Source of the DNA: a virus
Taxonomy: Duplodnaviria > Caudoviricetes
Direction: 5' to 3' (one strand)
Virus record (IMG/VR): IMGVR_UViG_3300033070_001349
Coordinates: 64,001-128,000 of that record
DNA length: 64,000 bases
Part shown: positions 1 through 51,598 of the stretch, one piece after another
How the letters are laid out: each line of letters starts with the position of its first letter
Numbering within the stretch: the first letter of the stretch is position 1
Made by a program: the position numbers and the translations under genes
Notes under the pieces: model-generated
The model's database searches: none
Seen by the model: the letters and a program-made list of their open reading frames with translations, nothing else
What the model was told of the DNA's origin: nothing

Positions 1-297
1 CGCGTCCTCTACCTCCAGGTCGAAGGCTCCCCGCAGTTTCAGGACTCGATCCCCTACGGCCACGAGAACCGCGTCCTCGTCCGGGTGACGATCGATAGCG
101 GTGTGGCCTGGTGGGGCGACCCCAGACACCCCGACCCGGCTGTCCACCTCTCGATCCATACCCCCTTCGGAGCCCTAGACGAGCTCCGCGGGACCTGGAG
201 GGTCGCCGAAGTCCGCGGCCCGGATCGCCTGACCCTCATCCTCCCCGCCATCACGGGCCTCACCGCGGGCCCCTGGCACCCTACGCCGTCCCTCTAG
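1..297 (+). CDS. 3' end of hypothetical protein (partial)
   Basis: Frame is open from base 1 to TAG at 295-297, with GC3-rich codons. Confidence 0.5.
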   Translation, partial: RVLYLQVEGSPQFQDSIPYGHENRVLVRVTIDSGVAWWGDPRHPDPAVHLSIHTPFGALDELRGTWRVAEVRGPDRLTLILPAITGLTAGPWHPTPSL

Positions 298-308
298 GAG
301 AACACCCT

Positions 309-1289
309 ATGCCTACGACCGTCACGCTCGCTCACCTCAAGGCCATCCACCTTCACCTCGCCGACCTCCTCGGTGAGACGGACACCTCGCGCGCCGAGGT
401 GATCGCTCAGGCGACCATCGGCGAAGCCCCCGTGTACCCGGACCTCACCGCGACCAACCTCGGCGTCGTCTCGGAGGGCCTCCGCGAGGCCTCCATCGCG
501 GTCGCCCCGCTCCGCCGCCAGGGCATCGTGGACCTCTTCCATCTCGTCCGCCAGGGGATGCCGATGTGCGCCCGCTGCGGTCGCTTCCGCGTCCAGCTCG
601 TGGGGACGGCTACGTGGGAGGCCGTCGAGGGCCCCGGGTGCCCTAAGGACGGAGGGCTCTTCGCGGTCGAGACGAGGGCCGAGATCATCGGGTGGCACAA
701 CGGCCGCTCCTACCCCGACGGAACGACCCACGACCCCGACGGCGTCCCCCTCACGGAGGAGGCCATCCGCGCCGACCGTACGGTCCACCCCACGGTGGAC
801 GCCGCGTGCGACGAGACCGGAGCCTCCCTGCGCGACGTGCTCACGACGCTTCGCTACGACGGGGCCAGCCCCGCCGGGGCGCTCCGCGCGATCGAGGTTC
901 CGAACGGCCACTGGCCGAGCACGCTCGCGCAGCGAACCTTCACGGCGAGAGCCAAGGGCTCGTTCCAGACGAGGGCCTCGACCCCGCGGAGCACGACCGT
1001 GGGGAACCCCGGGGGAGACGGCTTCGCTCCTCCGACCACCCTGAATCGTATGTCGGTGCGTCAGCTCATGGTCCGGCTCTACGACACCACCGCGAGGATC
1101 CGCGTCGTCGCGTCGGACCTGCACATGAACCTCGGTCGCATCGTCTTCGATGGCTCGGCCGAGACCGCGTGGGCCTCCGTGATCGACGAGGCCGAGAAGG
1201 CGGGCAAGCTCGCGGCGCTGGTCGAGTACGCCCACACCAACAACCCCGGCAACCGTGAGGCGGCGGCCATGGCCGCCCTCCTCCGATAG
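309..1289 (+). CDS. Protein with a CxxC motif and a C-terminal Effector-Associated Domain 1 (EAD1, ~1050-1286)
   Basis: AGGAG RBS before ATG 309. C-terminal VRQLMVRLY...LGRIVFDGSAETAWASVIDEAEKAGKLAALVEYAHTNNPGN matches the EAD1 pattern. Confidence 0.75.
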   Translation: MPTTVTLAHLKAIHLHLADLLGETDTSRAEVIAQATIGEAPVYPDLTATNLGVVSEGLREASIAVAPLRRQGIVDLFHLVRQGMPMCARCGRFRVQLVGTATWEAVEGPGCPKDGGLFAVETRAEIIGWHNGRSYPDGTTHDPDGVPLTEEAIRADRTVHPTVDAACDETGASLRDVLTTLRYDGASPAGALRAIEVPNGHWPSTLAQRTFTARAKGSFQTRASTPRSTTVGNPGGDGFAPPTTLNRMSVRQLMVRLYDTTARIRVVASDLHMNLGRIVFDGSAETAWASVIDEAEKAGKLAALVEYAHTNNPGNREAAAMAALLR

Positions 1290-1300
1290 GAGCGCCCGCC

Positions 1301-1468
1301 ATGAATCTCTCCCTCCCCGCCCTGGACCTCTCGGCCCCGCCGATCCGCTACACCCCCTCCGATTGCGCCGTCTTCTGTAAGACGCGCGAGAAGTTCGGCG
1401 GATGCTCCAACATGGCCGCGGGCTACTCCCTCAAGGTCAATGGCACCCCCATCCTGGTAGTGGAGTGA
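1301..1468 (+). pseudogene. 5' fragment of a NADAR (YbiA-like) gene, truncated at 1455 by the inserted cassette
   Basis: AGGAG RBS. Translates MNLSLPALDLSAPPIRYTPSDCAVFCKTREKFGGCSNMAAGYSLKVNGTPIL|VVE*. FxKTxExFGGxSNMAxGYxLxVNG is the NADAR N-terminus; the expected SEALYQA is replaced by the inverted repeat. Confidence 0.75.
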
Positions 1469-1475
1469 TTCGCCC
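1456..1475 (+). repeat. Left terminal inverted repeat GGTAGTGGAGTGATTCGCCC
   Basis: Matches the reverse complement of 4251-4270 with one mismatch. Confidence 0.9.
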
Positions 1476-1970
1476 TGGGGTGGCGTGGTCTGGCTCCGAC
1501 GCTGCGACGGTGGCGTGATTTGGACGCCCTCGGAGCAACTCACGCCACCTCGCGAAAAGCCTTCAATAAAGGCACTCGGCGCAAAGCGGCACTCGCAAAA
1601 TTCGTGGCCGATCGACTAGCGCGAGCTCGCCACGGCTCGCAGAACCGGCCCGCGTGACGACCGACCGAGAGAGCCCCGTGCCTCCGATGCCTCCGATGCC
1701 CCTGGTGCCCCTGGTGCGTTCGGCGCTCTTCGGCATCAGGTCGGCTCCCGCAGGGTGGCGGTCCGCCACCTCCTCGCCACCCGCCACCTACCCACCACCC
1801 CTCGCCATGGCGGACCGCCACCCTCAACACCTCAAAATGGCGTGAAATACGCATGGAACGCAGCGTGCTCTCAAGCACGCATCACTGCGCCGACCACGCG
1901 CACGGCGATAGATCGCAACGATGCAGCCCACGACGACTCGCCAGACCAGCCCCGGAGCTCCCGCAGCCCT

Positions 1971-2198
1971 CTACTTCTCGTCGTACGTGTCTTCGGCCGC
2001 GGCTCCGAGCACATGGACGAGGTATGCGTTGCGCGACCAGCGGCCCATCTTTTTGGCGTTGAGGCGTTCCACTTTCGCGTCGATCTTCGCCAACAGCTCC
2101 TTCGGCACGCGGAGGGTAAGGGCGACATCCTCGACATCAGCGGAAGGCTTCGGCGCAGAGGCGCCCTTCGTTCGCTTGGCGTTGGTCGATTTGCTCAT
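1971..2198 (-). CDS. Ribbon-helix-helix (Arc/CopG-like) transcriptional regulator
   Basis: VALTLRVPKELLAKID...SRNAYLVHVL RHH pattern; divergent from the MTase. Confidence 0.75.
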   Translation of the reverse strand: MSKSTNAKRTKGASAPKPSADVEDVALTLRVPKELLAKIDAKVERLNAKKMGRWSRNAYLVHVLGAAAEDTYDEK

Positions 2199-2364
2199 GG
2201 GCGCAGTGATACTAGCGTACTGCGCCGCTGCCATCATCCTGATTGCAGCGCGACATCAGATCCACGCCATCATTGTGATGGCATCGCGGTATCACCGTGA
2301 TATAGTCGCCGCCATCGACTGTGGTTTGCCGGAAATGCGGCAATGGCGAGCAGGAGACGATTCA

Positions 2365-3726
2365 ATGGGCGCGTCGAAGATGAAGAAACACAAGGCGACG
2401 GAATCGCGTGCTACCCGCTCTCGATGTGCGCGCACTGCCGCATCGGATAAGATCGTGGTGCATGCAGGCGAACGTGACGAAGCGATGAATGGCGAGGCAC
2501 CGTTCACTTTCGGGGACCTGTTCTCCGGCGCGGGAGGCATGAGTTTCGGCTTCAAGAGCCACCCCGCGTTTCGCCCGGTCTTCGCGGTCGATGCACAGGT
2601 CGGCAAGCCGAGCAGCGGGATGGGGGCGCTGGAGTGCAACGCCTCGTACGAGGCCAACGTTGGCCTCCCGGCGCGCGAGGCCGACCTCTCGGTCTACTCG
2701 CCCCAGCAGCTCATGCATGAGACGGGGATCAAGCGCGGCGAGCTCGACGTGCTGATCTCCTGCGCACCCTGCACGGGGTTCAGCCGAATGAACAGCCAGA
2801 ACCACGAGCGGGACGACCGGCGTAACGGTCTGGTCGAGCGGACGGGCGAGTTCGTGTCCGCGCTTCGCCCGGCGATCCTCGTCATGGAGAACTCTCGCGA
2901 ACTCATCAGCGGCAACTTCTCGCACCACTACGAGAGCCTGCGCGCCTCGCTGGAGACGATGGGCTACTCCGTGTCCGGGGAGGTACACATGCTCACAGAC
3001 TTCGGCTTGCCACAGGTACGTGAACGCGCCCTAGTCATCGCGACGAGGGACAGCGGGCGCATCCATACCCTGCGGGACCTCTGGGACAAGATGATGCCGT
3101 CCGCGGAGAGTGTCACGGTGCGCCGCGCCATCTCGCACCTCCCGCCGGTGGCCGCAGGTGAAGCGCACTCCAGCGATCCCCTCCATCGCTCGCCGGGATT
3201 CTCCGACCCCGTAAGCCTGGAGCGCATGCACGCGATCCCGCACGACGGCGGGTCATGGCTCGACCTGCTCAAACGGCCCGGTGGTGGGCGCCTGCTCACA
3301 CCCTCGATGGTGAAGCTCGTCGCGGCGCGCGACTTCGGTTCGCACCCCGACAAGTACGGGCGGCTGTGGTGGGATCGGCCGTGCGTGACGATCAAGCGTG
3401 AGTGCGCCCATGTCGGCAACGGCCGGTACGCCCACCCTGAGCAGGATCGGCTCTGCACCGTCCGTGAACTCGCGCTGTTGAGCGGGTTCCCCGCCGGATA
3501 CAAACTTCTCGGCACGCTGTCGAACCGTTACCGTCACATCGGCGACGCGGTCCCGCCGCTCATCAGTTTCCAACTCGCGCACGCCTGCCACTGGATGCTG
3601 ACCGGGAAGCGGCCCCGTCGCGGCGAGTGGTGCCTGGCAGGTACATCGCTGCGTCCGGAGGACATCATCGAGCGTCGCGAGGCTCAGATGGCGATGCCGT
3701 GGCGGGAGTTGCGGTCGGCAGTCTAG
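2365..3726 (+). CDS. DNA (cytosine-5)-methyltransferase
   Basis: Motif I DLFSGAGG, IV PCTGFS, VI MENS, VIII QVRER, IX TVRELALLSGFP, X IGDAVPP. AGGAG RBS before ATG 2365 (alternative start 2485). Confidence 0.93.
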   Translation: MGASKMKKHKATESRATRSRCARTAASDKIVVHAGERDEAMNGEAPFTFGDLFSGAGGMSFGFKSHPAFRPVFAVDAQVGKPSSGMGALECNASYEANVGLPAREADLSVYSPQQLMHETGIKRGELDVLISCAPCTGFSRMNSQNHERDDRRNGLVERTGEFVSALRPAILVMENSRELISGNFSHHYESLRASLETMGYSVSGEVHMLTDFGLPQVRERALVIATRDSGRIHTLRDLWDKMMPSAESVTVRRAISHLPPVAAGEAHSSDPLHRSPGFSDPVSLERMHAIPHDGGSWLDLLKRPGGGRLLTPSMVKLVAARDFGSHPDKYGRLWWDRPCVTIKRECAHVGNGRYAHPEQDRLCTVRELALLSGFPAGYKLLGTLSNRYRHIGDAVPPLISFQLAHACHWMLTGKRPRRGEWCLAGTSLRPEDIIERREAQMAMPWRELRSAV

Positions 3727-4019
3727 GAATCGCGCAAGAACTCCCAGGTCGCGATCACGGCGCAGTGGCTCTTGAGGAGGTGCTTGATCTGGAGCTTACG
3801 CTCGCCACCGCCGTCGAAGTACAACTCAAAGATCCGCCTGTCGCGATCGTCATAGACCCGGCAGTAGCCTGGGATCGCGGTCCTTTGCGAACTTTCGTGC
3901 ATCATCGTGAACACGCCGTTATTAGCGCGCATCAAGAGCGCCTTCGGTATCGCAACGGGGCGGTGGGGAGCGAAGCTCAACGAGCGGATGCCAGAAATGG
4001 TGAAGGCCCGAGCTGACAC
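3723..4019 (-). pseudogene. C-terminal remnant of a SmaI-like type II restriction endonuclease (similarity limited to ~3723-3956)
   Basis: VAIPKALL...PGYCRVYD...FELYFDGGGERKLQIKHL..HC.V.ATWEF resembles the R.SmaI C-terminus as recalled from memory; N-terminal part absent; convergent with the MTase. Confidence 0.65.
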
Positions 4020-4250
4020 TCGAGCCTTCGTGCCGACAGCGGATGCCGACGGGAGGAGGGCGGCGGCGCATTCTCGCGCGTGTTTCCGGCGGGACAGGCT
4101 ACGTCACGGCCGGACCCAAGGGGACGGGCGGTGTCGGTGTGCCGCGATGTGACGGGCGCGGTGCGCGCGAAATCAAATCACGCCACCCCGCGCGAAGCCC
4201 GACGGCGGTGGTATGAGTTGGTTTCCGTGCCAACGACGTGGCGTGATTAG

Positions 4251-4270
4251 GGGTGAATCACTCCACTACC
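4251..4270 (-). repeat. Right terminal inverted repeat (GGTAGTGGAGTGATTCACCC on - strand)
   Basis: gggtgaatcactccactacc on + strand. Confidence 0.9.
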
Positions 4271-5280: not shown

Positions 5281-6219
5281 ATGAGCACCTTCGCCGCCCA
5301 GACCGCCGCCGCCACCACCACCGTCCGTACCTGCTCGCACTGCGGCCTCGCCCTCACCGACCCGGTCTCGAAGTCGGTGGGCGTGGGCCCGATCTGCCGC
5401 GGCAAGGAAAACGCCGTGCTCGCGAAGGTGATGCCGCTCTTCGAGACGGGCGTCCAGAAGTACGGCCAGGAGCTCGTCCGCTCGTTCGTCGTCCTCCACC
5501 CCGAGACCCAGACCGAGCTCCTCCAGGTGGTCCGCACGGTCCTCGGTTCCGACCGCCCCCTCGACCTCCGCGACACCGTCCGCCGCCTCGACTGGGCCAC
5601 GTCGTTCCCCCAGCCCAAGACCGTCCGCGAGGCCCTCATCGGGCTCATCGCCGCCTGCGGCTACCCCGGCCTCGCGGCGATCGTCTCGGGCAAGGCCTCC
5701 ACCACCCCGGCGAAGGTGACCGCCGAGGGCGGCCGGATCGTCCTCGCGGGCTCCAAGAACGGCTACGCGGTCCAGGCAATGAAGGGCATCAAGGGCTGGA
5801 GCTTCTCCGGCTCCGCCAAGACCTGGAGCTTCCCCGCGGAGATGATCGCCGAGGTCAAGACCGTCATCGCGACCTTCTACCCGGTGACCGAGTGCGACCT
5901 CGACGCGGTGGGGGCCGAGGCCCTCGCCCAGGCCGCCACCCTCGCCCCCAAGGTCGTCACCCCGGCCCCCGCGGCGCCGAAGTCGGTCCCCCCGGTGGCC
6001 GCCAAGGTCTACGGCGTCTCCCTCACCGTCAACGCCAAGGGCGGCCTCGTGGTGCTCACCCCCTACCACCCCGGTTTCATCATGGACCTGAAGGATGCGG
6101 TCCCCTCCAAGGCGCGGACCCGGAACCACAAGGACAGCCCCAAGACCTGGACCGTGGACGCCGCCTACCGCTCGGTCGTCGAGGCCCTCCTCGCCAAGCA
6201 CTTCGGGTACGCGGCGTGA
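5281..6219 (+). CDS. DUF6011 zinc-finger protein with two HARP-like repeats
   Basis: CSHCGLALTDPVSKSVGVGPIC (DUF6011 signature); KGWSFSGSAKTWSFP and PYHPGFIMDLK...KTWTVD; GAGGAG RBS. Confidence 0.7.
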   Translation: MSTFAAQTAAATTTVRTCSHCGLALTDPVSKSVGVGPICRGKENAVLAKVMPLFETGVQKYGQELVRSFVVLHPETQTELLQVVRTVLGSDRPLDLRDTVRRLDWATSFPQPKTVREALIGLIAACGYPGLAAIVSGKASTTPAKVTAEGGRIVLAGSKNGYAVQAMKGIKGWSFSGSAKTWSFPAEMIAEVKTVIATFYPVTECDLDAVGAEALAQAATLAPKVVTPAPAAPKSVPPVAAKVYGVSLTVNAKGGLVVLTPYHPGFIMDLKDAVPSKARTRNHKDSPKTWTVDAAYRSVVEALLAKHFGYAA

Positions 6220-31865: not shown

Positions 31866-32777
31866 GTGCCGAAGAAGTCCAAGGTCGCGCCCTCCCCCTC
31901 CCCTGTGGTCGACTCCATCCTCGGGGAGATCGAGGCGGGGGCAGGGTCCCCCCAGGTCGCCATCCCCAAGGCGGCCCTGGCGGACATCGTTGTCCACGTC
32001 CCGGTGATGACCCCCCTCGATCGCATCGTCGAGACCGAGTGGAACACCAACGTCCAGAGCGGCGAGAAGTTCTCCGAGCTCGTGGAGGACATCAAGGTCA
32101 ACGGCTTCTCCGGGGCGGTCGACGTGGTGCCCTTCACCGGGCCCGACGGCCACGAGTCCTACCTCGTGGTCTCCGGCGAGTGGCGCTGCAAGGCCGCCCG
32201 GCTGCTCGGCCTGAAGGAGATCCCCGCCTCGCGGCTCTCCCACGCGAAGTTTCAGGACGCGGACTTCCAGCGGATCCTCTCGATCCGGCGCAACAACATC
32301 CACGGGCGGCACGACCCGGAGAAGACCCGCGCGCTCATCGAGCACCTCGCGAAGAAGTACCCCCAGTCGGATGAGCTCCGGCGGCTCCTCGCCTTCGACA
32401 AGACCGCCGAGTGGAAGCGCCTCGTGGGGGACACGCGGAAGTCCCTCAAGGGCCAGGGCGCTACCCAGGCCCAGCTCGCCCAGTTCGACGAGAAGGCGAA
32501 GAAGGCCAGGAGCCTTGCCGACCTCTCGGCCATCGTCTCCCACCTCTTCGACACGCACAAGGAGACGGTCCCCTGGGGCTACATGGCGTTCTCCTTCGGC
32601 GGGAAGGAGCACCTCTACGTCGCTGCCACCGCGCCGACGATGCAGGCTGTGAAGCGCATCGTGGCCCACTGCGGCGACCGCAACCTGGAGATCAACTCCG
32701 TCCTCGGCCCGGCCCTCACGGAGCTCGCGGACCGGCTCGCGAAGGGTGTCGAGGGCCCCCTCCCCGGCGACTTCTGA
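31866..32777 (+). CDS. ParB/Srx N-terminal domain protein
   Basis: WNTN...KFSELVEDIKVNGF...YLVVSGEWRCKAARLLG...N.IHG. Confidence 0.8.
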   Translation: MPKKSKVAPSPSPVVDSILGEIEAGAGSPQVAIPKAALADIVVHVPVMTPLDRIVETEWNTNVQSGEKFSELVEDIKVNGFSGAVDVVPFTGPDGHESYLVVSGEWRCKAARLLGLKEIPASRLSHAKFQDADFQRILSIRRNNIHGRHDPEKTRALIEHLAKKYPQSDELRRLLAFDKTAEWKRLVGDTRKSLKGQGATQAQLAQFDEKAKKARSLADLSAIVSHLFDTHKETVPWGYMAFSFGGKEHLYVAATAPTMQAVKRIVAHCGDRNLEINSVLGPALTELADRLAKGVEGPLPGDF

Positions 32778-32907
32778 CAGGGTCTCCCGTGTCGGTGCCG
32801 GGCGGCAACCGCACGCCGAACGACAGTCGGTCTCCGCGCGCTCGCGTACGTGCGCACGAGCGACCCCCTGGTGTCCCCTCGCGGAGTCGTGTAGCGTCTC
32901 GCCCGTT

Positions 32908-35900
32908 GTGAGCCCCCCGCCCATCCTGACCCACGGTGAGCTCCTCGCAGAGCTCAAGTCCTCGTCCACCTCAGGGGCCCTCACGGAGGCGAAGCACTAC
33001 CCGCCGGGGTACTGCAAGCTCATGGGGAAGGCCCCCCAGTGGGTCTACATCAAGACCACGGACCCCAAGAAGCCGTGGAAGTATTACGCCACGCCCGGGA
33101 CCGAGAAGGGGGACACCGCGCTCGCCAAGTCCAAGGTGTGGGACGAGGCGGCCGACAAGAAGGAGACCCTCGCGGCCAAGGCGGGGGTTGCGGTCCACAC
33201 CGCGCAGGACCTCTCCGGCCTCCCCGACGACGCCAAGGCCGCCCTCAAGGGCGAGTTCGGTGACGACTGGCAGGACGAGCTATCGAAGACCCTCACCGAC
33301 CTCAAGTCCCTCGAAGGCGAGCTCGAAGGCGAGCACGACGAGTGGATGGCGAGCAAGGGCGGGGGGAAGGGCGGCAAGGCCAAGGCCTCGAAGCCCGCCG
33401 CCGCTACCGCTACCGCCGCCCCGGCCGCCGAGCCCGAGCCGGAGCCCGATGCCGCCCCGGCGACCGGGGAGCCCGCCGCTGAGCCCGAGAAGCCTTCCGC
33501 CGAGGAGCCCGCCGAGCCCGCGCCGGAGGCCCCCTCGGAGCCCGAGAAGCCCTCCGAACCCGAGGCCCCTGTCCCGAGTCATGTGACTCCGAGCGAGGAG
33601 CCCCCGGAGCCCGCCCCGCCCGAGCCCGAGGACGGGACGCACCCCGGAGACGACATTCTCGCCCTCCTCAAGGGGGAGCCCGAGGCCCCGAAGGAGCCCG
33701 AGGCGTCGCCCGCCGAGGAGCCCGCCGCGGCGAAGGAGCCCGAGCCCGAGGCTCCGAAGGCCGAGCCCGACACCGCGACCGCGGCGTCCTCGACCCCTGT
33801 GGCGCCGGAAGCCGCGGGCGCGGTGCCGTCTGAGATCCCGGACGTGGCGGACCTCGCCTACGCCGGGAACGCCCAGCACCTCGGCGGGCAGTCGAAGAAG
33901 CACTACTTCACCGACAAGAAGGGCAGGAAGTACCTCTTCAAGACGGCCAAGGATGCGAACGACGTGCGCAAGCCGTGGGCGGCCCAGGCCGCCGAGCTCG
34001 CGTCGAGCATCCAGCGGAAGGTTCTCGGGAAGGGCGTGCCGGTCAAGGTCCTCTCGATCGGGGGGAGCACCGGGACGATCCAGCCCGTGATGGAGCTCGG
34101 TGACCCTCCGTCCCTCGTCTCGACGCCGCCGGAGAAGCTCACCCTCGCCGATGCCAACGCCGTAGCGCAGGAGCACGTCATCGACTGGGGCACCGGCAAC
34201 CACGATGGTCACGGAGGCCAGTTCATCCGGCTCAAGGACGGAACCCTCGTCGGGATCGACAAGGAGCAGGCCTTCCGCTTCCTCGGGACCCCGGGGGAGA
34301 AGCTCTCGACGAGCTACGACCCGAACCCGGACACGCCCTACTACAACGGCTTCTGGACCGCCTTCGCCGCGGGCAAGCTCCCGGCCGCCTTCGACCCCAA
34401 GAGTGCCATGCTTCCGGCGCTCAACAGCATGATGGCGTTGCCGGACGCCGAGTACAAGGAAGGCCTCCAGGCCTACTTCGACTCGCTTCCGGCCTCGGCA
34501 AAGGCCGCCCGCCCGGACTTCGTCGAGAAGGCCCTCACCCGCAAGGCGTCCCTCAAGAGCGACTTCGAGGGCTTCCTCACGCCGCTCTACCGGAAGAAGG
34601 AGGGCAACCCCAAGGGCAAGTTCACCTTCGAGCACGGATGGATCCCCGACGGCAAGGTCCCGAAGGGAGCCGCCCCTGCGGAGACCTCGCCGGAGACCCT
34701 CCCGGCCCCGGCGATCCCGAACCCGCTCGTGGTGGACCCGAAGTACCAGAGCTTCCTCGACGACCTCGCGGCGGCGTCCAAGGTCGACCTGTCGAACGCC
34801 GCCGACCTGAGCCCGGTGGGCATCGCCAACGTCGCTCTCGACCACCTCCCCGCCAAGCAGGCGAAGGCCCTCCAGGCGAAGTACGGCGACCTCCACCCGT
34901 ACCTCCAGGCAGGCCACGCGGCCTACAAGTTCGCGAAGAAGGACTACACCAACGGCGCTTCGCCCGAGGCCATCAACAACGATCTGTCTACGGCGGACCC
35001 GCCCGTGGATGTGTCGGACTACCACGCCGTGTACAAGGCGCTCCGGCACTCTCCCAAGTACAAGGACGGGGGCCTCTACGCCCAGGCCTACGCCGCGGTG
35101 CACGGACCCGACTGGAAGGAGAAGATGGCGAAGACCGTCGCCGCCCTGAACGGGGTGGTCTCCTCCGAGCCGGAACAGGATCATAAGGACGTTCCGACCT
35201 GGGAACCGACCGACGCCGACATCGACGCGATGGCCGCCGCCGCGGGCGAGCCCTCGGACCCCGAGCCCCCGACCGCCACGCCGACCCCCGGCACCCCCAT
35301 CCTCTCGGGCCCTCCCGCTGTCGGGTCGGAGTCGTGGCCCCACGAGAAGTACAAGGGCCTCTCGGCCGCCGTCGCCGCCATCTCCGCGGGCAAGGGCAAG
35401 ACCTCGGACGCCATGCTCAAGGCGTTTCAGGACGAGGACTACCCGAAGAAGTACGGCCCTCAGGTCGCCGACTGCATCAACGCGATCCGGGTCGCGATGG
35501 GCAAGCCCGCGTACCTCAAGCTCCCGGGCAAGGTCCTCACGCAGACCGAGCTCGAATCGCTCCACCAGCTCATCTCGAACGACGCGGACGGCTTCAAGAC
35601 CAACGCCACCGCCGGGGTCTTCAAGCTCTCGACCGACCAGCTTCACGCCGCGAACGCGATGCTGGCCTTCCGCGGCTACGGCCCGATCGGCGCGGCCGAG
35701 CCCGAGGAGCCTGCCTCCTCCGCTCCTGCCCCCTCCGCCCCGGCGATCGAGGCCCCGAAGAGCTCCAAGCCGGTCCACCTGACCCCGGCGATGGTCGCCG
35801 CGGTGCCCTCCCTCTTCGACGGGTTCGGCACGGACGAGGAGTCGGTGGAGGCGATCGACACCGCCCTCAACGACGCCGCCGAGGCCATGGAGAAGGATCC

Positions 35901-38900
35901 GACCAAGGCGACGAAGGGTGAGATCAACCCGTGGGTCAAGGGGCTCATGGATGCCCACGGCGACCACTGGAAGACCGTCGCCAAGGCCGCCATCACCAAG
36001 ATCAACACGAAGAAGGGCGACCCGGACGACCTCGTTCTGAACCCGCCCCAGATCCTCTCGTCCCACCTCAAGGAGCTCACCCCCTCGGAGGTGATCGCCA
36101 AGATCGAGGGCTATGCCGCCAAGGGCCTCGGCGGTGAGGCCTTGAAGTGGCTCCAGCAGATCAAGGCCAAGCACGATGAGGACTGGGAGAAGGTCGCGAC
36201 CCGCGAGCTCACCAAGCTCGCGTCCAACCTCACCGACCACGCCCCGATCGGCGAGCCCATCATCCCGGGCACCTCAGACCCAGAGGCCCCCGCGAGCCCT
36301 GTGGCTCCTCTGGGCGTTCCCCCGAAATCCGCCGGTCCGGTCCTCACACCGGCCCTCGTCGCCGCCGTGCCCCCCTCCATGTTGGGGTACGGCCCGGACG
36401 ATACGGAAGCTCTCCTCCAGAACCTCGAAGGCGACCTCAAGCAGGGCATCACGCCCCTCGGGTCCATCGGCTCGTGGTCGAAGGCCCTCCACGGCATGTA
36501 CGGCGACGAGTGGATCGCCACCGCGAAGGCCGCGGTACAGGCAGCGAACCACACCGAGGGGGACCCGAACGACCTCCTCACCAACGTACCCATTCAGATC
36601 ACGCACCAGCTCGGGCCGGGCGGTCCCTCGCCGGAGCAGTACCTCCAGTTCATCCAAGGGAAGCATCACCAGGGCGGCAAGGGCCACCAGTGGCTCGAAC
36701 AGGTGAAGGCGAAGCACCCTGACGACTGGAAGGAGGTCGCCCTCGGGAAGCTCAAGGCCATCGCCGCGAAGCACACCGATCACACCCCGCTCGGCGCGGC
36801 CTCCGCGGCCCCGGCTGGGGCGAGCGACGACCCCCCGGTGCCCCCCACGATCCACCCCGAGGACATCACCGACGCGGACGCCGCCCTCGACTCCCTCGCG
36901 GACAAGCTCGCGAATCATCCCTCGGGTTCCATGCTCGGCCTCGGCCCCACCCTCGGGTGGGTTCAGGCGCTCAAGGACAAGCACGGCGACCAGTGGAAGG
37001 ACGCCGCGAAGAAGGCCCTCGGGTTCGCCTCCGCCGCGGAGTCCCCCTCGAAGACCTCCGGCCTCGAAGCGGAAGGGTCGGCCATCGCGAAGATGATGGC
37101 CGCGGGTGCCGCCGCCTCCTCGAAGGGCCTCACCCAGGCCCTCGGGCTCTCGAAGCCCGTCGACCCTATGGGGGTGGCCCACATCGCCAACACCATCGCC
37201 AAGGTCGCGGCAGCTTCCCAGGCGTCGACCCCGGACGAGCTCTTCGCGGACGTGCTCGACTCGAAGGGCGACGGCTACTTCAAGTCCTCCCTGGGCAACA
37301 CCGCCGCGAGCGAGAAGGAGTGGATGGAGGCCGTCCAGAAGATGGTCTACGCCCACACGGCGAAGCACCCTCTCAAGCCCTTCGAGCCCCAGGCCGCTCC
37401 TGCCGCGTCCCCCGTCTCCCCGGAGAAGCACCTCGCGTCCCTCAAGAACCCGGTCCACGACCTCGCGAACTACCTCACCAAGGGCTCCAAGGCCTTCCCC
37501 CCGGGCGTCGACATTCCCCACGCGGTTCACGCCCTCGCGGGTGCCGTCATGGGCAAGGACGGCTCCCTGTCGCCCGAGGCGGAGGCGGCCCTCGGCCTCA
37601 CGCACGAGTACGCGAGCTCGATCAAGGGCATCCTCGACCTCTCGGGGGCGAAGAAGAGCAAGGAGAGCTTCTCCAACAGCGCCTTCCTCGGCGCGGTGGC
37701 CGGTGGCTTCAAGATGCCCGAGGAGAAGCTCCTCGCGATGGTGAACGGGTACCTCGCCGCCAAGGGCGAGGACCCGATCGTGACCGCCGCGCCGGGCACC
37801 CCGGCGGCGGCCCCGAGCGCCACCGACCCGGCCGTCTCCCCCGGCGTGGACGTTCTCTCTCACCCCAAGGTCTCGGCCGTCCTGACCGACCCCGCGAACA
37901 CCACGCCCCACGCGGTCTTCCAGGGCCTCACGAAGCTCACGGGCCAGGGCATCGGCCCGAGCGGGTGGCCGAGCAAGGCCCTCGCCCAGTGGGCCATGTC
38001 GAAGGGCCTCACGTCCGGGCAGGCCACCGCCCTCGCCCACCCGAAGCTCTCGGCCATGGGCCTCGTCGGGGATCCTGACGCCACCCCCTCGGCGGTCTAC
38101 TCCAAGGTCGCGAAGCTCACCGGGGACAAGGCCAACGAGCTCTCCGACGAGCTCGGGGACTCCTGGTACTCGGACTTCCTCGACGGGTGGTCCACCCTCC
38201 ATTCGCAGACCGTCGGGTCGACGCAGAAGGCCCCTCACGGGGTGTGGGTCGGCGACTTCACCAACAAGTTCGCCAAGAACCTCCTCTCGCACGACGAGTC
38301 CCCGAAGGACTGGTACGCGGACCTCCTCCACTTCGACAAGTCGGTCAAGAACGCCCCCGACGACATCGTGCAGGGGTGGCACCAGTGGAAGGCCAAGTGC
38401 GAGAAGGAGTACGGGCCGACCTGGAAGGAGAAGCTCGTGGCCGCCGCCGCGGCCTACCACGGCAAGGGCTACGACTCCCTCCCTGACGAGGTGAAGGCCA
38501 AGGTCCCGCAGACCACCGAGAAGTTCTACGCGGCGATGTACCCGAAGGGGAAGCCCGTCACCGGCTCCCACCTCGACCTCTTCAACGTCAACGGCGTGAA
38601 GCAGGCGATCGAGGACTACAAGAGCGGCTCCGCGTGGCCCGAGCACGCGGCGATCTTCGACGCCGCCAAGGCCTCCTACGGGCCCGGCTGGGAGTCGGCC
38701 TTCCTCGCCGACTACGCGGCCCACAAGGGGGAGCCCGTCCCCCACACCCCCGTGGCTTCGCATCCCTACGAGCCGGTCGACTCGCCCCTCGTGGACACGC
38801 TCTGGTCCGCCGGTTACGGCCAGACCGCCTCGCTCGCGTCTATCTCGGTGAACTACCCCGAGCTCGCGGACAAGTGGAAGGCGAAGTACGGGCCCGACGC

Positions 38901-41900
38901 GCAGACCCACATCCACCTCGCCATGGCGGCCAAGATCAACGGGGTGGTCTCGCCCTCCATTGCGGTCAAGCTCCTCGGGAACAAGATCCCGGTCTCCCCG
39001 GAGATGCTCAAGGCCCTGGTTCCCACATGGGGAGCCTCGGGGGAGACGCCGGAGGGCTACGCGGCGCTCGTCAAGCAAAAGCTCGACACGCTCGTGAACT
39101 ACGGGGGGCCGAACGCGGATAGCCTCAAGACCGAGGCGGGCGCCCTGGAGAAGCAGTACGGTCCCAACTGGCACCTCAAGCTCGCCCTCGGCGACTTCTT
39201 CGAGCAAGGGGAGAGCGCGGGTACCACCGTCCCGGCCACCCTCCTCCAGAAGGCCCTCGTCACGCACACGCCCGTGGCCCCGTCCGCCCCAGCGGCGGTC
39301 CCTGCTGCTCCCCCCAAGGACCTCCCCTACGAGGGTCCTGACTCCGAGCTCTACAAAACCATGGCCGTCTTCGGCGGGGACCCCCTGGGCGTGGAGGAGT
39401 GGATCGGCCAGGAGCCCAAGGCGGACGACATCGTCAACAAGCTCAAGGCGAAGTACCCGGGGAAGTGGGCGGCCCACGCCCACCTCGCCCATGCCGCCCT
39501 CTCCGGTAAGGACCTCGCGAAGAAGCACGTCGACAAGCTCCTCGGGCCGAACGCGCCGTACCTCTCCGACGATCTGAACGACGACCTCGGCCTCTTCGGG
39601 CAGACCTTCAAGGACCACGCGGAGGTCATGGCGCACCTCCAGAAGAAGGTCAGCAAGCTCAAGGACGAGTCCGCCGAGGAGGCGGAGAAGCTCAAGGCGA
39701 AGTACGGCCCCAACTGGCTCCACAAGATCGCGGCCCACTACACCGAGACGCCGGTCCCGCCCCACGTAGTCCAGGCCCTCCTCCATGGCCCGGAGGCTCC
39801 CCTCGCGGGCTCCGCTCCGGCTACCCCCAGCCCCGCCGCCGGAGCTCCCGCCGAGCCGCCCCCTGACCTCTCGAAGGCCAAGGCGTTCTACGCCGCCCAT
39901 CCCGAGATCGTGGCGGCCATGGCCTCCATGACCCCGGCGGAGTTCGCCGACGCCGCCAAGGCCGCCCACGCCTACCCCGGCACCAACGCCGCGTGGGTCA
40001 ACGCCCTCAAGGGCGCCACGGACCACGGCTACGGGATGTTCACCCCGGCCGAGGAGATCATCGCCTCCGTCAAGGCCCTCAAGGACGCCGGGGGCATCCC
40101 CGCCGACGCGAAGAAGGCCCCCGCTCCGATCAACGGCCCGGTGACGACCGCGACCAACGCCCCTATGCCCGGCATGGCCGGGGCGATTCTCAGCAAGTCC
40201 TTCGGCCCATGGCACCCGGCCGCGGAGATGCTCAACGCAAGCCCCGAGATGCTCGCGAAGCTCATCGACGCTTCCGCGCACCCCTACGGATACATGAACG
40301 GCCAGGGGTTCGCCCACGCCTACGCCAGCAAGCTCGCGTACGGCCCCGACCACAACCCTCACACCCCGGGCGCCACCCCTCCTCCCCCCGGATGGGAGAA
40401 GGCGATGGTGGCCGCCTACGTGGCCCACCATTCGACCCACTACGTACCCTCGAACGACTACGAGCAGGCCGAGTACAAGCACTCGGTCACGACGACGCTC
40501 CAGAAGCACCTCGACAAGTACGTCAAGTCGCCGTTCAAGGCCCCGGCCTTCCATCACGACAAGGCCTTCGCCGCCCTCACGGCCGCTGGGAAGAAGACGG
40601 TCATCGCCAACCTCCTCAAGAGCGGCCACCTCAAGCCCACGCTGTCCGCCGTTCAGCTCGCGAAGCTCCAGGCCGTCGCCAAGCAGATCGTCGCCCAGAC
40701 AGCCCTTCACGGGGGCGACTCGACCAAGGCTCAAGAGGCGGTCCTGACCCCTGCGGTCGTGAGCGCCCTCAAGTCCTACGGCCCGTCCTGGCCCCACGCG
40801 GCCAACGTCTTCCTCAAGCATGAGGGGCACCCGCCGATCAAGGCGCTCCCGTCGGACTGGATCGACCCCTCCGCGGTCCCCCTCCCCCCGGCGCTCAAGG
40901 CCTTCTACGAAGCGCCGACCACGATCCCGGGCACCTCGCTTACACCGCCCTTCGCGGGGGGGCCCAAGCCCGCCACGCCCACCCCTGCGCCCACCCCTGC
41001 GCCCCCCCCGAAGGCCCCGCCTCCGCCGCCCCCGGCCCAGGTGCAGAGCGCGGCCAAGGTGGTCACCAAGGGCACCCCGAAGGCGGTCAAGGCCGCCCCC
41101 AAGGACCCGGCGCCTGCCGGGTGGGCCACCGGCACGGCCGCCGAGCCCCCGGCCCCCAAGGTCGGCCTCATCCCGAGCCTCCCGAAGCCCTCGGCGCCGA
41201 AGGTCCAGGGCACGGGCACGCCCATCCACGAGGCCCACGAGTCCGCCCAGGCGGCGGCCCACCACCTCCCCGGCGGGCAGAAGAAGGTCGTCACCTCGAC
41301 CGACGGGACGCAGTGGGCCTCGTACCTCCCGCACGACCACCTCGGGGCCCCCCTCGGGCCTTCGGGCGCCTCGGCCACCAACCTCTTCCACGGCCTCGCC
41401 GGGTTCGTGAAGCCCGGCGCGTCCTACGCGGTGAGCGCGGACGACCACGCGATCCTCCACCCCCTGCCCGAGGGGACCAAGAGCCTCGACGGCGTGCCCC
41501 CGAGCGCCCTCTCCCCGGCCGAGCTCCAAGACGTGGCGACCGAGCACGTCCTCGACTGGGCCATGGGCATCCACGCGACCCACGGCGGGACCCTCCAGCG
41601 CACCCCCGACGGCCGCATCGTGGGCACCGCGAAGACCCAGCCCTTCGTCCACGACGATCAGGATAAGCTCTCGCTCGACTGGCAGTCCCCGACCTCGACG
41701 AAGCCCTCGTACTACAACAAGTTCTGGCAGGACTGGGTCGACGGCAAGCACGACTTCGACCCCCACACGCTCAAGGGCGCGATCGAGTCGATCGAGTCCG
41801 TCGACCCCAAGGGCTACGCCGACTCGCTCCGCAAGCACTTCGAGGCTCTCCACCCGGGCCAGCCCGACACGGTCTACGACCGCGCGCAGTCGGCCCTCTA

Positions 41901-43665
41901 CCGCAAGGCCGGGGTCCGCGCCGACTTCGAGCGCTTCCTCACCGACGCCTACCGGCAGCGCACCGGCAAGAGCAAGGGCTTCTTCACCTTCGACGAGGGG
42001 TGGATCGAGGCGCCCGAGGAGCCCTACGAGGTGCCCGTCCCCATGGAGGAGTACGCGAGCAGCCAGGGCATCGAGACGACGGCCTACCAGGACTACTCGA
42101 CGACGCCCCCGAAGCCCGACGCCTCGAAGCTCACGCTCAAGGTTCCGAAGAGCCACGACCTCACCAAGCTCACCGACCTCCTCTCGAAGGTCGGCGTGAA
42201 GATGCACGGGACGCCTGTGACAGGCAGCGCGAACCACATGGTCTTCGTGGACGCGCAGGAGTTCAAGAACACCAACTCCGGCAAGACGAAGACCGTCGTC
42301 CCCAAGGCCGCGTCGACCAACACCCCGACCCGCCCGCGGTACTTCCCCAAGGTGTTCCGGCCCAAGCCGGTGACGGACGCCAACGCCCTCAAGACGATCG
42401 AGAGCCACGACTTCCACTACACCGGGAAGGCCCTCCACGCCGACGGGCCCGCGCTCGAAGGTCAGGTGATGAAGGTCAAGAAGCTCTCGGGGAAGAAGGC
42501 CCCGGAGTATCAGGTCTCCTTCAAGCTCCGCGAGCCCTACTGGGGGAATCTCGCCTCGGGCGGCGCCTCGGCCACCTTCGCGTACAAGCAGGGCACCTTC
42601 GATCCGGCGACGGGCGAGCTCGACCACGGCAAGACCAAGATCGACAGCGTGCCTTCTCGGAAGTGGGACGTGGGTTCCCACGAGGCTCACTTCGTCACCG
42701 ACCCCTCTCAATATGCCTACAAGGGGACGATGGTCCTCCACCTCAAGCCCGCGAAGGGCCAGACGGTCGAGGCGGCTCTTCACGAGGCCCTCGAAGGGGT
42801 GAAGCCCGGCCTCGGCGCGGACCTCCTCAAGCCCCCGAGCGCGGAGGACAAGGAAGTCGCCCGGCTCTCCCGTCTCCTCTGGGCCAAGGCGCCCCAGAGC
42901 TCGGACCAGCTCGACGCCCTCGAAGCCAAGAACCCCAAGGTTCGCACGGTGGCCGCGCTCAAGAAACGCCTCGCGGCGGCCAACGTCTCCGAGGAGGTGC
43001 AGTCCCGCGTGGTCGAGCGCGAGGTCTACGACGGCCACCTCACGCACGTCCTCCCCGGCCGGGCGAAGAGCATGGGGTGCCGGATGCTCTTCCAGGGCAT
43101 CGGCGACATCAACGGGGCCCTGAACCTCGCGGCCTCCGGGATCATGGGCATCCACGAGCGCAACCTCGCAGGCTACCCCAAGATCGGCGGCTCCTACGAC
43201 GCGGACGTGGCGAGCGGCTCCGCCGACGGGACCCTGTGCCGCGTCGCGACGGACGCCGCCATGAGTGCCAGCTTCAACAGTCACGCCTTCTCGGGGGACT
43301 ATCAGGCCATCATCGCCCCCGATGAGCTCGACCGCCTCGACGCCTATATGTACCTGGGCGACACGTACGGAAACTGCAAGAAGAGCTCCTCGTCGTGGAC
43401 CGGCCGAAACACGGTGGAGGCGAACGTGGCCTCGCTCACCAAGGGGCACCAGTCGGGCAACGAAATCTCCTTCCGCAAGGGGATCCACCGCAACCGCATC
43501 CTGCGCATCGTCACGCAGAGCGAGTCCTCGCGAAAGGCCTTCATCGACGGCGCCAAGGCCCGCGGCATCACCGAAGTGAACGGGATGCCCGTCGAGGACT
43601 ACTGCGTCGTCGGGAACAACCTCGGGGACGCCTATAACAAGTACGTGAAGCCGCTGGGGTACTAG
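32908..43665 (+). CDS. Giant (~3,585 aa) polyvalent protein: kinase-like domain, repeats, pseudokinase, ART-like C-terminus; likely virion-injected
   Basis: Uninterrupted GC3-rich ORF; YLFK...EHVIDW..GNHDGHGGQF...GIDKEQAF; degenerate second copy; recurrent K(Y/H)GxxW motif. Start uncertain (32746-32908). Confidence 0.85.
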   Translation: MSPPPILTHGELLAELKSSSTSGALTEAKHYPPGYCKLMGKAPQWVYIKTTDPKKPWKYYATPGTEKGDTALAKSKVWDEAADKKETLAAKAGVAVHTAQDLSGLPDDAKAALKGEFGDDWQDELSKTLTDLKSLEGELEGEHDEWMASKGGGKGGKAKASKPAAATATAAPAAEPEPEPDAAPATGEPAAEPEKPSAEEPAEPAPEAPSEPEKPSEPEAPVPSHVTPSEEPPEPAPPEPEDGTHPGDDILALLKGEPEAPKEPEASPAEEPAAAKEPEPEAPKAEPDTATAASSTPVAPEAAGAVPSEIPDVADLAYAGNAQHLGGQSKKHYFTDKKGRKYLFKTAKDANDVRKPWAAQAAELASSIQRKVLGKGVPVKVLSIGGSTGTIQPVMELGDPPSLVSTPPEKLTLADANAVAQEHVIDWGTGNHDGHGGQFIRLKDGTLVGIDKEQAFRFLGTPGEKLSTSYDPNPDTPYYNGFWTAFAAGKLPAAFDPKSAMLPALNSMMALPDAEYKEGLQAYFDSLPASAKAARPDFVEKALTRKASLKSDFEGFLTPLYRKKEGNPKGKFTFEHGWIPDGKVPKGAAPAETSPETLPAPAIPNPLVVDPKYQSFLDDLAAASKVDLSNAADLSPVGIANVALDHLPAKQAKALQAKYGDLHPYLQAGHAAYKFAKKDYTNGASPEAINNDLSTADPPVDVSDYHAVYKALRHSPKYKDGGLYAQAYAAVHGPDWKEKMAKTVAALNGVVSSEPEQDHKDVPTWEPTDADIDAMAAAAGEPSDPEPPTATPTPGTPILSGPPAVGSESWPHEKYKGLSAAVAAISAGKGKTSDAMLKAFQDEDYPKKYGPQVADCINAIRVAMGKPAYLKLPGKVLTQTELESLHQLISNDADGFKTNATAGVFKLSTDQLHAANAMLAFRGYGPIGAAEPEEPASSAPAPSAPAIEAPKSSKPVHLTPAMVAAVPSLFDGFGTDEESVEAIDTALNDAAEAMEKDPTKATKGEINPWVKGLMDAHGDHWKTVAKAAITKINTKKGDPDDLVLNPPQILSSHLKELTPSEVIAKIEGYAAKGLGGEALKWLQQIKAKHDEDWEKVATRELTKLASNLTDHAPIGEPIIPGTSDPEAPASPVAPLGVPPKSAGPVLTPALVAAVPPSMLGYGPDDTEALLQNLEGDLKQGITPLGSIGSWSKALHGMYGDEWIATAKAAVQAANHTEGDPNDLLTNVPIQITHQLGPGGPSPEQYLQFIQGKHHQGGKGHQWLEQVKAKHPDDWKEVALGKLKAIAAKHTDHTPLGAASAAPAGASDDPPVPPTIHPEDITDADAALDSLADKLANHPSGSMLGLGPTLGWVQALKDKHGDQWKDAAKKALGFASAAESPSKTSGLEAEGSAIAKMMAAGAAASSKGLTQALGLSKPVDPMGVAHIANTIAKVAAASQASTPDELFADVLDSKGDGYFKSSLGNTAASEKEWMEAVQKMVYAHTAKHPLKPFEPQAAPAASPVSPEKHLASLKNPVHDLANYLTKGSKAFPPGVDIPHAVHALAGAVMGKDGSLSPEAEAALGLTHEYASSIKGILDLSGAKKSKESFSNSAFLGAVAGGFKMPEEKLLAMVNGYLAAKGEDPIVTAAPGTPAAAPSATDPAVSPGVDVLSHPKVSAVLTDPANTTPHAVFQGLTKLTGQGIGPSGWPSKALAQWAMSKGLTSGQATALAHPKLSAMGLVGDPDATPSAVYSKVAKLTGDKANELSDELGDSWYSDFLDGWSTLHSQTVGSTQKAPHGVWVGDFTNKFAKNLLSHDESPKDWYADLLHFDKSVKNAPDDIVQGWHQWKAKCEKEYGPTWKEKLVAAAAAYHGKGYDSLPDEVKAKVPQTTEKFYAAMYPKGKPVTGSHLDLFNVNGVKQAIEDYKSGSAWPEHAAIFDAAKASYGPGWESAFLADYAAHKGEPVPHTPVASHPYEPVDSPLVDTLWSAGYGQTASLASISVNYPELADKWKAKYGPDAQTHIHLAMAAKINGVVSPSIAVKLLGNKIPVSPEMLKALVPTWGASGETPEGYAALVKQKLDTLVNYGGPNADSLKTEAGALEKQYGPNWHLKLALGDFFEQGESAGTTVPATLLQKALVTHTPVAPSAPAAVPAAPPKDLPYEGPDSELYKTMAVFGGDPLGVEEWIGQEPKADDIVNKLKAKYPGKWAAHAHLAHAALSGKDLAKKHVDKLLGPNAPYLSDDLNDDLGLFGQTFKDHAEVMAHLQKKVSKLKDESAEEAEKLKAKYGPNWLHKIAAHYTETPVPPHVVQALLHGPEAPLAGSAPATPSPAAGAPAEPPPDLSKAKAFYAAHPEIVAAMASMTPAEFADAAKAAHAYPGTNAAWVNALKGATDHGYGMFTPAEEIIASVKALKDAGGIPADAKKAPAPINGPVTTATNAPMPGMAGAILSKSFGPWHPAAEMLNASPEMLAKLIDASAHPYGYMNGQGFAHAYASKLAYGPDHNPHTPGATPPPPGWEKAMVAAYVAHHSTHYVPSNDYEQAEYKHSVTTTLQKHLDKYVKSPFKAPAFHHDKAFAALTAAGKKTVIANLLKSGHLKPTLSAVQLAKLQAVAKQIVAQTALHGGDSTKAQEAVLTPAVVSALKSYGPSWPHAANVFLKHEGHPPIKALPSDWIDPSAVPLPPALKAFYEAPTTIPGTSLTPPFAGGPKPATPTPAPTPAPPPKAPPPPPPAQVQSAAKVVTKGTPKAVKAAPKDPAPAGWATGTAAEPPAPKVGLIPSLPKPSAPKVQGTGTPIHEAHESAQAAAHHLPGGQKKVVTSTDGTQWASYLPHDHLGAPLGPSGASATNLFHGLAGFVKPGASYAVSADDHAILHPLPEGTKSLDGVPPSALSPAELQDVATEHVLDWAMGIHATHGGTLQRTPDGRIVGTAKTQPFVHDDQDKLSLDWQSPTSTKPSYYNKFWQDWVDGKHDFDPHTLKGAIESIESVDPKGYADSLRKHFEALHPGQPDTVYDRAQSALYRKAGVRADFERFLTDAYRQRTGKSKGFFTFDEGWIEAPEEPYEVPVPMEEYASSQGIETTAYQDYSTTPPKPDASKLTLKVPKSHDLTKLTDLLSKVGVKMHGTPVTGSANHMVFVDAQEFKNTNSGKTKTVVPKAASTNTPTRPRYFPKVFRPKPVTDANALKTIESHDFHYTGKALHADGPALEGQVMKVKKLSGKKAPEYQVSFKLREPYWGNLASGGASATFAYKQGTFDPATGELDHGKTKIDSVPSRKWDVGSHEAHFVTDPSQYAYKGTMVLHLKPAKGQTVEAALHEALEGVKPGLGADLLKPPSAEDKEVARLSRLLWAKAPQSSDQLDALEAKNPKVRTVAALKKRLAAANVSEEVQSRVVEREVYDGHLTHVLPGRAKSMGCRMLFQGIGDINGALNLAASGIMGIHERNLAGYPKIGGSYDADVASGSADGTLCRVATDAAMSASFNSHAFSGDYQAIIAPDELDRLDAYMYLGDTYGNCKKSSSSWTGRNTVEANVASLTKGHQSGNEISFRKGIHRNRILRIVTQSESSRKAFIDGAKARGITEVNGMPVEDYCVVGNNLGDAYNKYVKPLGY
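33575..33590. promoter_or_regulatory. 16-bp quasi-palindrome copy 7 CGAGTCATGTGACTCC
   Basis: Dispersed motif. Confidence 0.7.
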
Positions 43666-51594: not shown

Positions 51595-51598
51595 CGCC

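Follow-up and report, generated by a model that had tools for sequence, protein, structure and literature searches.

A phage protein that joins an EAD1 adaptor domain to an uncatalogued core, with a possible role in docking on host EAD1 proteins

Here we describe a 326-aa protein, encoded by a T4-like high-GC myovirus contig, whose C-terminal ~80 residues are, on the strength of a profile match and a structural model, a genuine effector-associated domain 1 (EAD1) with a predicted Death-like fold, and whose N-terminal core is modelled with confidence as an uncatalogued domain. The core and EAD1 recur together in a deep protein family on contigs that look phage-like wherever we inspected them. 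We propose that the protein may be a counter-defence adaptor that would dock on host EAD1 proteins, a prokaryotic counterpart of the viral FLIP and CARD-only decoys, and we regard this reading as about evenly poised between right and wrong.

The gene comes from a single IMG/VR virus record (148,482 bp, linear, 78% complete by CheckV), of which the window, the 64,000-nt stretch of DNA that was analysed, supplies the coordinates used below. All credible genes of the record lie on one strand, and the genome has a GC content of 70%. Structural genes for a portal, prohead protease, T4 gp23-like major capsid protein, tail sheath, tape measure, and baseplate are accompanied by replication genes for DnaB, primase, family-A polymerase (PolA), a UvsX-like recombinase, and RuvC. 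With its structural and replication genes on one strand, this 148-kb contig is viral DNA, as a preliminary description made from the window had supposed, rather than a piece of host chromosome. The major capsid protein finds its best match, at 35%, in an uncultured 595-kb phage, and no near relative of the genome was found in the cultured-phage collection. Two of its essential genes carry additional segments: an HNH endonuclease segment at ~residues 200-380 of the portal ORF (51557-54385) and a LAGLIDADG segment at ~residues 195-340 of the family-A DNA polymerase ORF (44170-47289), both of which are likely inteins or homing-endonuclease insertions. The window also contains a 3,639-aa ORF (32746-43665); its coding bias is strong, and Pfam recognised no family in it at E<=0.01.

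The reading frame of interest runs from an ATG at 309 to a TAG at 1287-1289 and shows strong GC3 bias, the same as elsewhere in the phage genome. A longer reading from a GTG at 111 was rejected: it overlaps the upstream gene, and the ATG at 309 is preferred because the first residues of the homologues align with M1. The gene is present in a single sequencing run (X1), and the cultured phage collection gave neither a DNA nor a protein match to it. The features of the gene and of the DNA directly downstream are as follows.

296 to 300, plus strand: AGGAG ribosome-binding site, 8 nt 5' of the ATG (direct sequence reading)
309 to 1289, plus strand: core+EAD1 protein P0001 (326 aa), coding sequence with its stop codon (GC3-biased frame; homologues align from residue 1)
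309 to 554, plus strand: core sub-domain 1, residues 1-82, predicted five-helix bundle with conserved H9 and Y43 (AlphaFold2 pLDDT >90)
561 to 728, plus strand: core sub-domain 2, residues 85-140, predicted beta zinc-ribbon-like unit with C87, C90, C111, D114, and the invariant W129 (model and conservation)
756 to 977, plus strand: core sub-domain 3, residues 150-223, predicted helical bundle (model)
978 to 1043, plus strand: flexible linker rich in Pro, Gly, Thr, and Ser, ~residues 224-245 (lowest model pLDDT; variable in length and unalignable across homologues)
1044 to 1286, plus strand: EAD1, residues 246-326, predicted Death-like fold (PF19955, model, and structural matches)
1301 to 1468, plus strand: NADAR gene stump of 55 codons, cut at the left end of the cassette (homology to the NADAR N-terminus)
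1456 to 4270, no strand: mobile cassette of 2,815 bp with perfect 16-bp terminal inverted repeats, GGTAGTGGAGTGATTC and GAATCACTCCACTACC (repeats, cargo, and GC)
1921 to 3726: C5 DNA methyltransferase in the cassette (129 bits)
1971 to 2237, minus strand: RHH-like small ORF in the cassette (by eye only)
3723 to 4019, minus strand: SmaI-like endonuclease fragment, the C-terminal third, in the cassette (79 bits)

The assignment of the C-terminal domain rests on both a profile and a fold. Pfam PF19955 (EAD1) matched residues 250-325 (1056-1283) over profile positions 11-89 of 90, with 33.4 bits (E 6.3e-8) against a curated gathering cut-off of 24.2 bits, and a six-frame search of the whole phage record with the same profile gave 35.4 bits at the C-terminus of this protein and nowhere else. 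The AlphaFold2 model of residues 245-326, for which a two-sequence alignment was the input, has five helices with pLDDT 84-92. When residues 243-326 were compared by VIA-align with 48,161 PDB representatives, nearly all of the top 50 matches were CARD, DD, PYD, or DED domains at Z 5.0-7.0, values that are modest for a helical bundle, with the weight resting on the consistency of the Death-fold list. The best of these were a CARD (9frr, Z 7.0) and a bacterial death-like domain (8ss1, Z 6.8), and also among them were the death domain of FADD, PYDs, DEDs, and, at Z 5.9, MC159, a viral FLIP. The preliminary description had placed an EAD1 in the last ~79 aa, behind a flexible linker. The profile score and the Death-like model bear out the first of these claims, and the low pLDDT at ~residues 224-245 bears out the second.

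The same description had seen a CxxC-containing domain without known identity in the N-terminal part of the protein, and this too agrees with our findings. The core (residues 1-223) was modelled from a 45-member family alignment with a mean pLDDT of 94.5 and a pTM of 0.74, giving helices at 7-79, a beta unit at 85-136, and further helices at 150-223. The candidate metal ligands are C87-x2-C90, C111, and D114; the fourth position is a Cys in one core subfamily, and we therefore read the pattern as that of a zinc ribbon. Conservation reaches 100% at W129, 98% at C111, 96% at Y43 and P147, and 91% at C87 and C90, with no other position at or above 90%, and the Cys pair is absent from two members. 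Lesser conservation is seen at H9 and D142 (87%) and at R69 (73%, or 89% with Lys counted). The core has no evident catalytic constellation, although a ligand-binding or active site built from H9, Y43, R69, and D142 is conceivable.

Searches by sequence and by shape gave no convincing relative of the core. There was no match to residues 1-223 in Pfam or PHROG, no match at E<=1e-3 by Foldseek against the PDB, no convincing relative in a PDB sequence-profile search, and no convincing match among the BFVD viral models, while searches of the ESM Atlas reached a TM of <=0.30 by shape and gave no usable match by features. A wide VIA-align search found its best match, at Z 6.5, in the five-helix bundle of a GIPC GH2 domain; core residues 4-82 superpose on GIPC2 GH2 with an rmsd of 2.4 A over 69 residues. 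The next matches, SAM-like bundles at Z <5, superpose weakly on the same residues and resemble the SAM domains that serve as protein-protein interaction modules. Unlike a true relative, however, these matches cover one third of the core, carry no sequence signal, and have Z scores under the level that separates a relative from a common helical arrangement. Because none of these searches gave a convincing relative, we consider the core to be a confidently modelled but uncatalogued domain, and it matches none of the known effector or signalling domains in Pfam, PHROG, the PDB, BFVD, or the Atlas.

A profile of the core, run against 1.84 billion representative proteins, retrieved 49 clusters with E<=1e-3, of which 16 reached E<=1e-30. 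The family is deep, with identities down to ~20% among the 49 clusters, and all of its sequences stem from metagenome assemblies. A domain scan of 46 members found EAD1 in 32 and EAD7 in two, and single members have an M48 peptidase or a kinase-like region replacing EAD1. By HMM iteration over the member set, core-EAD1 is the commonest architecture, followed by EAD1-core-EAD1 in six members (P0020, P0026, P0027, P0034, P0042, and P0045) and EAD1-core in two, the rest having other tails; the double-EAD1 members include, along with P0020, P0027, P0034, and P0042, the proteins at L017:6379-7653 and L029:7368-8732. A 407-aa core+EAD1 member (P0013) and the double-EAD1 relatives have the zinc-ribbon core and EAD1 in common with the 326-aa protein, at a core identity of about 30-49%, whereas the 326-aa protein has a single C-terminal EAD1 and stands in a 148-kb T4-like high-GC phage. 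Other search routes added little: one word-indexed homologue search returned a single relative, a second was captured by a kinase-bearing outlier, a third, with an EAD1 alignment and longer proteins, returned family members only, and a pattern search of viral contigs with a 4-sequence alignment gave 67 pattern matches, none of them a relative.

We inspected nine genomic contexts of the core family, and all were dense one-directional arrays of small unannotated ORFs together with phage-type genes, among them genes for a tape-measure protein, RNA ligase, tRNA synthetase, dNMP kinase, dCMP deaminase, NT5C, SNF2 helicase, and a PG-binding lysin. One context lies on a 413-kb groundwater contig, and the loci taken from core-family contigs range in GC from 55 to 76%. 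The gene upstream of the 326-aa protein does not match the upstream gene on the contig of its closest homologue. A 96-kb metagenomic phage contig (L016) carries two core paralogues, P0019 with EAD1 and P0040 without a recognised EAD1, together with genes for an RNA ligase and a class-I tRNA synthetase. The core profile had no match in the genome of Polyangiales MAG STL-MYX9 (G001), a genome that we return to below. Since all inspected contexts are phage-like and the core is without a match in this Polyangiales genome, core+EAD1 looks like a phage gene family, and not a one-off capture, on the contigs inspected.

Within this family, EAD1 is the more variable part. Mean pairwise identity is 30% for EAD1 versus 41% for the core, and of 91 pairs, 71 have the lower value in EAD1. 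Against cellular EAD1s of Polyangiales, the phage EAD1 reaches 53, 52, 46, and 45 bits; against the EAD1s of its own family its best score is 58 bits, and most of these score no better than the Polyangiales copies. In a tree of 54 EAD1 domains, phage and cellular copies interleave and most forks are poorly resolved; with only 84 columns, the tree is too weakly resolved to show host matching. Its sole strongly supported split (97% SH-aLRT) sets apart a second EAD1 subtype, which takes in every EAD1 from the N-terminal end of a double form, along with five phage EAD1s from C-termini and two cellular ones from Polyangiales. The double-EAD1 proteins combine two kinds of EAD1, their N-terminal copies belonging to the separate subtype.

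Two papers deal with EAD1 systems, by Kaur, Burroughs, Iyer, and Aravind (2020, PMC7159879) and by Kaur et al. (2021, PMC8195603). The former proposes that EAD1 in NTPase-centred conflict systems brings effectors to hubs via homotypic EAD1-EAD1 contact; the principle is that the same EAD occurs on hub and effector in one operon or genome, and cells usually carry EAD1 as a fusion to an effector (PMC7159879). By HMM score, the C-terminal ~80 residues of the phage protein have EAD1 in common with these vWA-MoxR/VMAP, iSTAND, GAP1-GTPase, TRADD-N, and related conflict systems. However, those systems are cell-encoded, whereas the phage protein is virus-encoded, has no cognate EAD1 or NTPase/vWA hub in its genome, and is fused to a core that is found only on phage-like contigs and is not among the described effector domains of EAD1 systems. 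Across the 148-kb, 78% complete record, we found no second EAD1, the 326-aa protein being the sole PF19955 match, and a hub search gave no AAA_3 (MoxR), VWA_2, or CHAT match and, for NACHT, only a sub-threshold 14-bit P-loop snippet inside the dNMP-kinase ORF. Since we looked in the phage genome for a cognate EAD and for a hub and found neither, the phage protein is not a conflict-system member. With one EAD1 gene and no hub match in the phage, this EAD1 would have to find its partner in the host or in the protein itself, although, the contig being 78% complete, the missing portion could encode a partner as well.

The EAD1 domain is already published and curated. The passages searched in PMC7159879 and PMC8195603 make no mention of phage-encoded EADs, we found no report of them in the wider literature searched, and an EAD1 encoded by a phage on a core confined to phage-like contigs is likewise unmentioned there. 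Our search found no experimental test of EAD homotypic docking, a principle that rests on comparative genomics. A further comparison is with the viral Death-fold decoys of eukaryotic viruses, such as the poxvirus MC159 vFLIP and the viral CARD-only and PYD-only proteins, which are likewise adaptors carried by a virus without the host catalytic partner. MC159, which is among the structural matches to the phage EAD1, has no sequence relationship to it beyond the fold. Unlike these decoys, the phage adaptor comes with a large additional core, and the likeness is an analogy in the way that the two may work.

The preliminary description had also set the gene beside a NADAR gene and taken this position as fitting an anti-defence cluster, an argument that our results do not support. 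The NADAR gene is a broken stump of 55 codons. Dolichospermum phage Dfl-JY45 encodes a true NADAR protein of 212 aa (79.6 bits on PF08719), and the beginning of this protein shares 69% identity with residues 16-50 of the stump, a stretch of 35 aa. In our phage, the gene is interrupted at 1456 by the 2,815-bp cassette. No remainder of the gene was found downstream of the cassette, and PF08719 (NADAR; ~160-residue domain) had no match at E<=10 across the phage genome. The cassette has a GC content of 64% versus 70% for the genome, and no transposase was recognised within 1456-4270. There is no clean 8-bp target duplication around it, as would be expected if a neighbouring deletion had taken away the remainder of NADAR; the phage apparently lost an anti-ADP-ribosylation (NADAR) gene through cassette insertion. 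Three other runs (wastewater RNA, riverine, and wastewater) contain the cassette only, with different flanks and without the EAD1 gene. The other neighbours are a UvrD helicase upstream, uncharacterised ORFs, a DUF6011 protein, a dNMP kinase, and UDG, and two flanking ORFs of no known family had no match to solved structures. The DUF6011 protein (5281-6219, 312 aa), two genes 3' of the cassette, bears an N-terminal DUF6011 zinc-finger-like motif (35 bits). Because NADAR is broken and the remaining neighbours are DNA-metabolism genes or uncharacterised, the argument from an anti-defence cluster is weak.

The cassette provided a lead to the host. Its terminal 25-mer has exactly one match in 185,579 species genomes, on a 584-kb contig of Polyangiales MAG STL-MYX9. 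This genome contains a sister element of 5,695 bp with the same perfect 16-bp ends (L028 1391-7085; G001:C4:206500-215000), which is bordered by an 8-bp target duplication, CGGTCGCC, has a GC content below that of its flanks, and sits between ordinary chromosomal genes. The right-hand 222 bp of the element are 96% identical to the phage cassette, while its cargo, a 1,143-aa N6-methylase-type protein, is unlike that of the phage cassette. The common ends therefore define a cassette family that moves restriction-modification genes between myxobacterial chromosome and phage.

STL-MYX9 also encodes two EAD1 proteins. A CHAT protease gene (L020 59-1030; G001:C33:7380-10610) is directly followed by a gene for a 234-aa protein that ends in EAD1 (L020 1042-1746), and we consider the two a candidate small EAD1-coupled pair. 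The EAD1 of the 234-aa protein is 35% identical to the phage EAD1 over 66 residues; a complex prediction of the phage EAD1 with that of the CHAT-linked Polyangiales protein (P0067) gave a score of 0.00 in a run without controls, which we count neither for nor against binding. Our host-side sampling of EAD1 covered the order and the phylum of STL-MYX9 only: EAD1 was found in 6 of the 101 genomes sampled from the order, and 3 of the 301 sampled from the phylum had a match to the phage EAD1, the best being STL-MYX9. These observations fit, circumstantially, a phage that infects a myxobacterium and acts on the EAD1 network of that host. Of the earlier suggestion of a myxobacterial, actinobacterial, or similar host, it is the myxobacterial part that gained some ground, through the identical 16-bp cassette ends in one of the few sampled genomes of the order that have EAD1.

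In the mechanism that we propose, the EAD1 of the phage protein would dock homotypically, during infection, on EAD1-bearing hub or effector proteins of the host. The core would then occupy the place of the host effector and cap, sequester, or otherwise disable the assembly, and the relatives with two EAD1s may bridge or short-circuit two branches of the host network. We infer both the binding to host EAD1 and the inhibitory outcome from the comparisons above. The counter-defence reading is favoured, indirectly, because the family lies on phage-like contigs, the fusion of core and EAD1 persists, the core lacks a catalytic signature, and the phage has no EAD1 partner or hub of its own. It is further favoured because EAD1 diverges faster than the core and scores equally against Polyangiales EAD1s, and because EAD1 proteins occur in the candidate host lineage, including one encoded immediately 3' of a CHAT protease. 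On the other hand, it is weakened because the neighbourhood is no recognisable anti-defence cluster and the host is hinted at only via a shared mobile element, and because H9, Y43, R69, and D142 are conserved at 73-96%, so that the core may not be inert.

The relatives that carry two EAD1s of different subtypes suggest a bridging of distinct partners, and this speaks against a different reading, in which EAD1 is a self-association module only, for example in an oligomerising zinc-ribbon protein that binds nucleic acids or proteins as an early or replication factor. Such a role would suit the position of the gene among those for DNA metabolism (UvrD upstream; DUF6011, dNMP kinase, UDG, DnaB, and primase downstream) and the frequent binding of nucleic acids by zinc ribbons. 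Death-fold domains do self-assemble and, since the phage has one EAD1 gene, a homo-oligomer would need no partner. However, self-association leaves unexplained the presence of EAD7 in place of EAD1 in some members, and also the fact that the domain is no generic oligomeriser but belongs to the conflict-system EAD1 family and stands as near to cellular copies as to its own orthologues. We consider this reading unlikely.

It is rather improbable, in our estimate, that the protein is an effector or hijacker whose core is brought by EAD1 to a hub of the host and is there activated or positioned by the host's own machinery, to the phage's advantage, so that nothing is blocked; host takeover, the timing of cell death, and the exclusion of competing phages are examples of what such a protein might serve. 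Cellular EAD1s are typically effector-fused (PMC7159879), and the few members that swap EAD1 for an M48 peptidase or a kinase-like region indicate that the core can be paired with enzymes. A functional pocket could be made up of H9, Y43, R69, and D142, which are polar and partly conserved, but the invariant residues of the core are structural only, and neither fold nor sequence links the core to any enzyme or toxin. In addition, neither the search of 1.84 billion proteins nor the STL-MYX9 genome placed the core in a cellular conflict operon.

That the gene is a host effector captured only recently, with no phage-specific role, is very improbable, for although the same region took up foreign DNA (the methyltransferase cassette at 1456-4270) and EAD1 is ~35% identical to Polyangiales copies, the gene shows the GC3 bias of the phage itself, the family spans 49 clusters down to ~20% identity with every inspected context phage-like, and no cellular homologue of the core was found among the 1.84 billion proteins or in STL-MYX9.

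We extend the counter-defence reading to the whole family more tentatively, as a possibility that we hold with some doubt: core+EAD1 proteins may be widespread phage antagonists of an apoptosis-type EAD1/Death-like immune network in multicellular bacteria. The one-EAD1 forms would cap hubs or effectors of the host, and the forms with two EAD1s of different subtypes would cross-link or short-circuit two branches of the network. If this is true, they would be the first viral Death-fold decoys known outside eukaryotic viruses and would give an experimental handle on the principle of homotypic EAD docking.

To our knowledge, EAD-coupled conflict systems are known from comparative genomics alone, and EAD-EAD docking and the triggers of these systems are undemonstrated. 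A phage family that keeps EAD1 on an apparently non-enzymatic core is a natural probe of them, and the host proteins that it binds would be candidate immune hubs. The core is itself a candidate new fold family for structure determination. To this family, the gene at 309-1289 adds a member together with a lead to a host. If its action is inhibitory, the strategy of viral death-fold decoys would extend from animal viruses to phages, and this would support a deep homology of bacterial and animal cell-death signalling.
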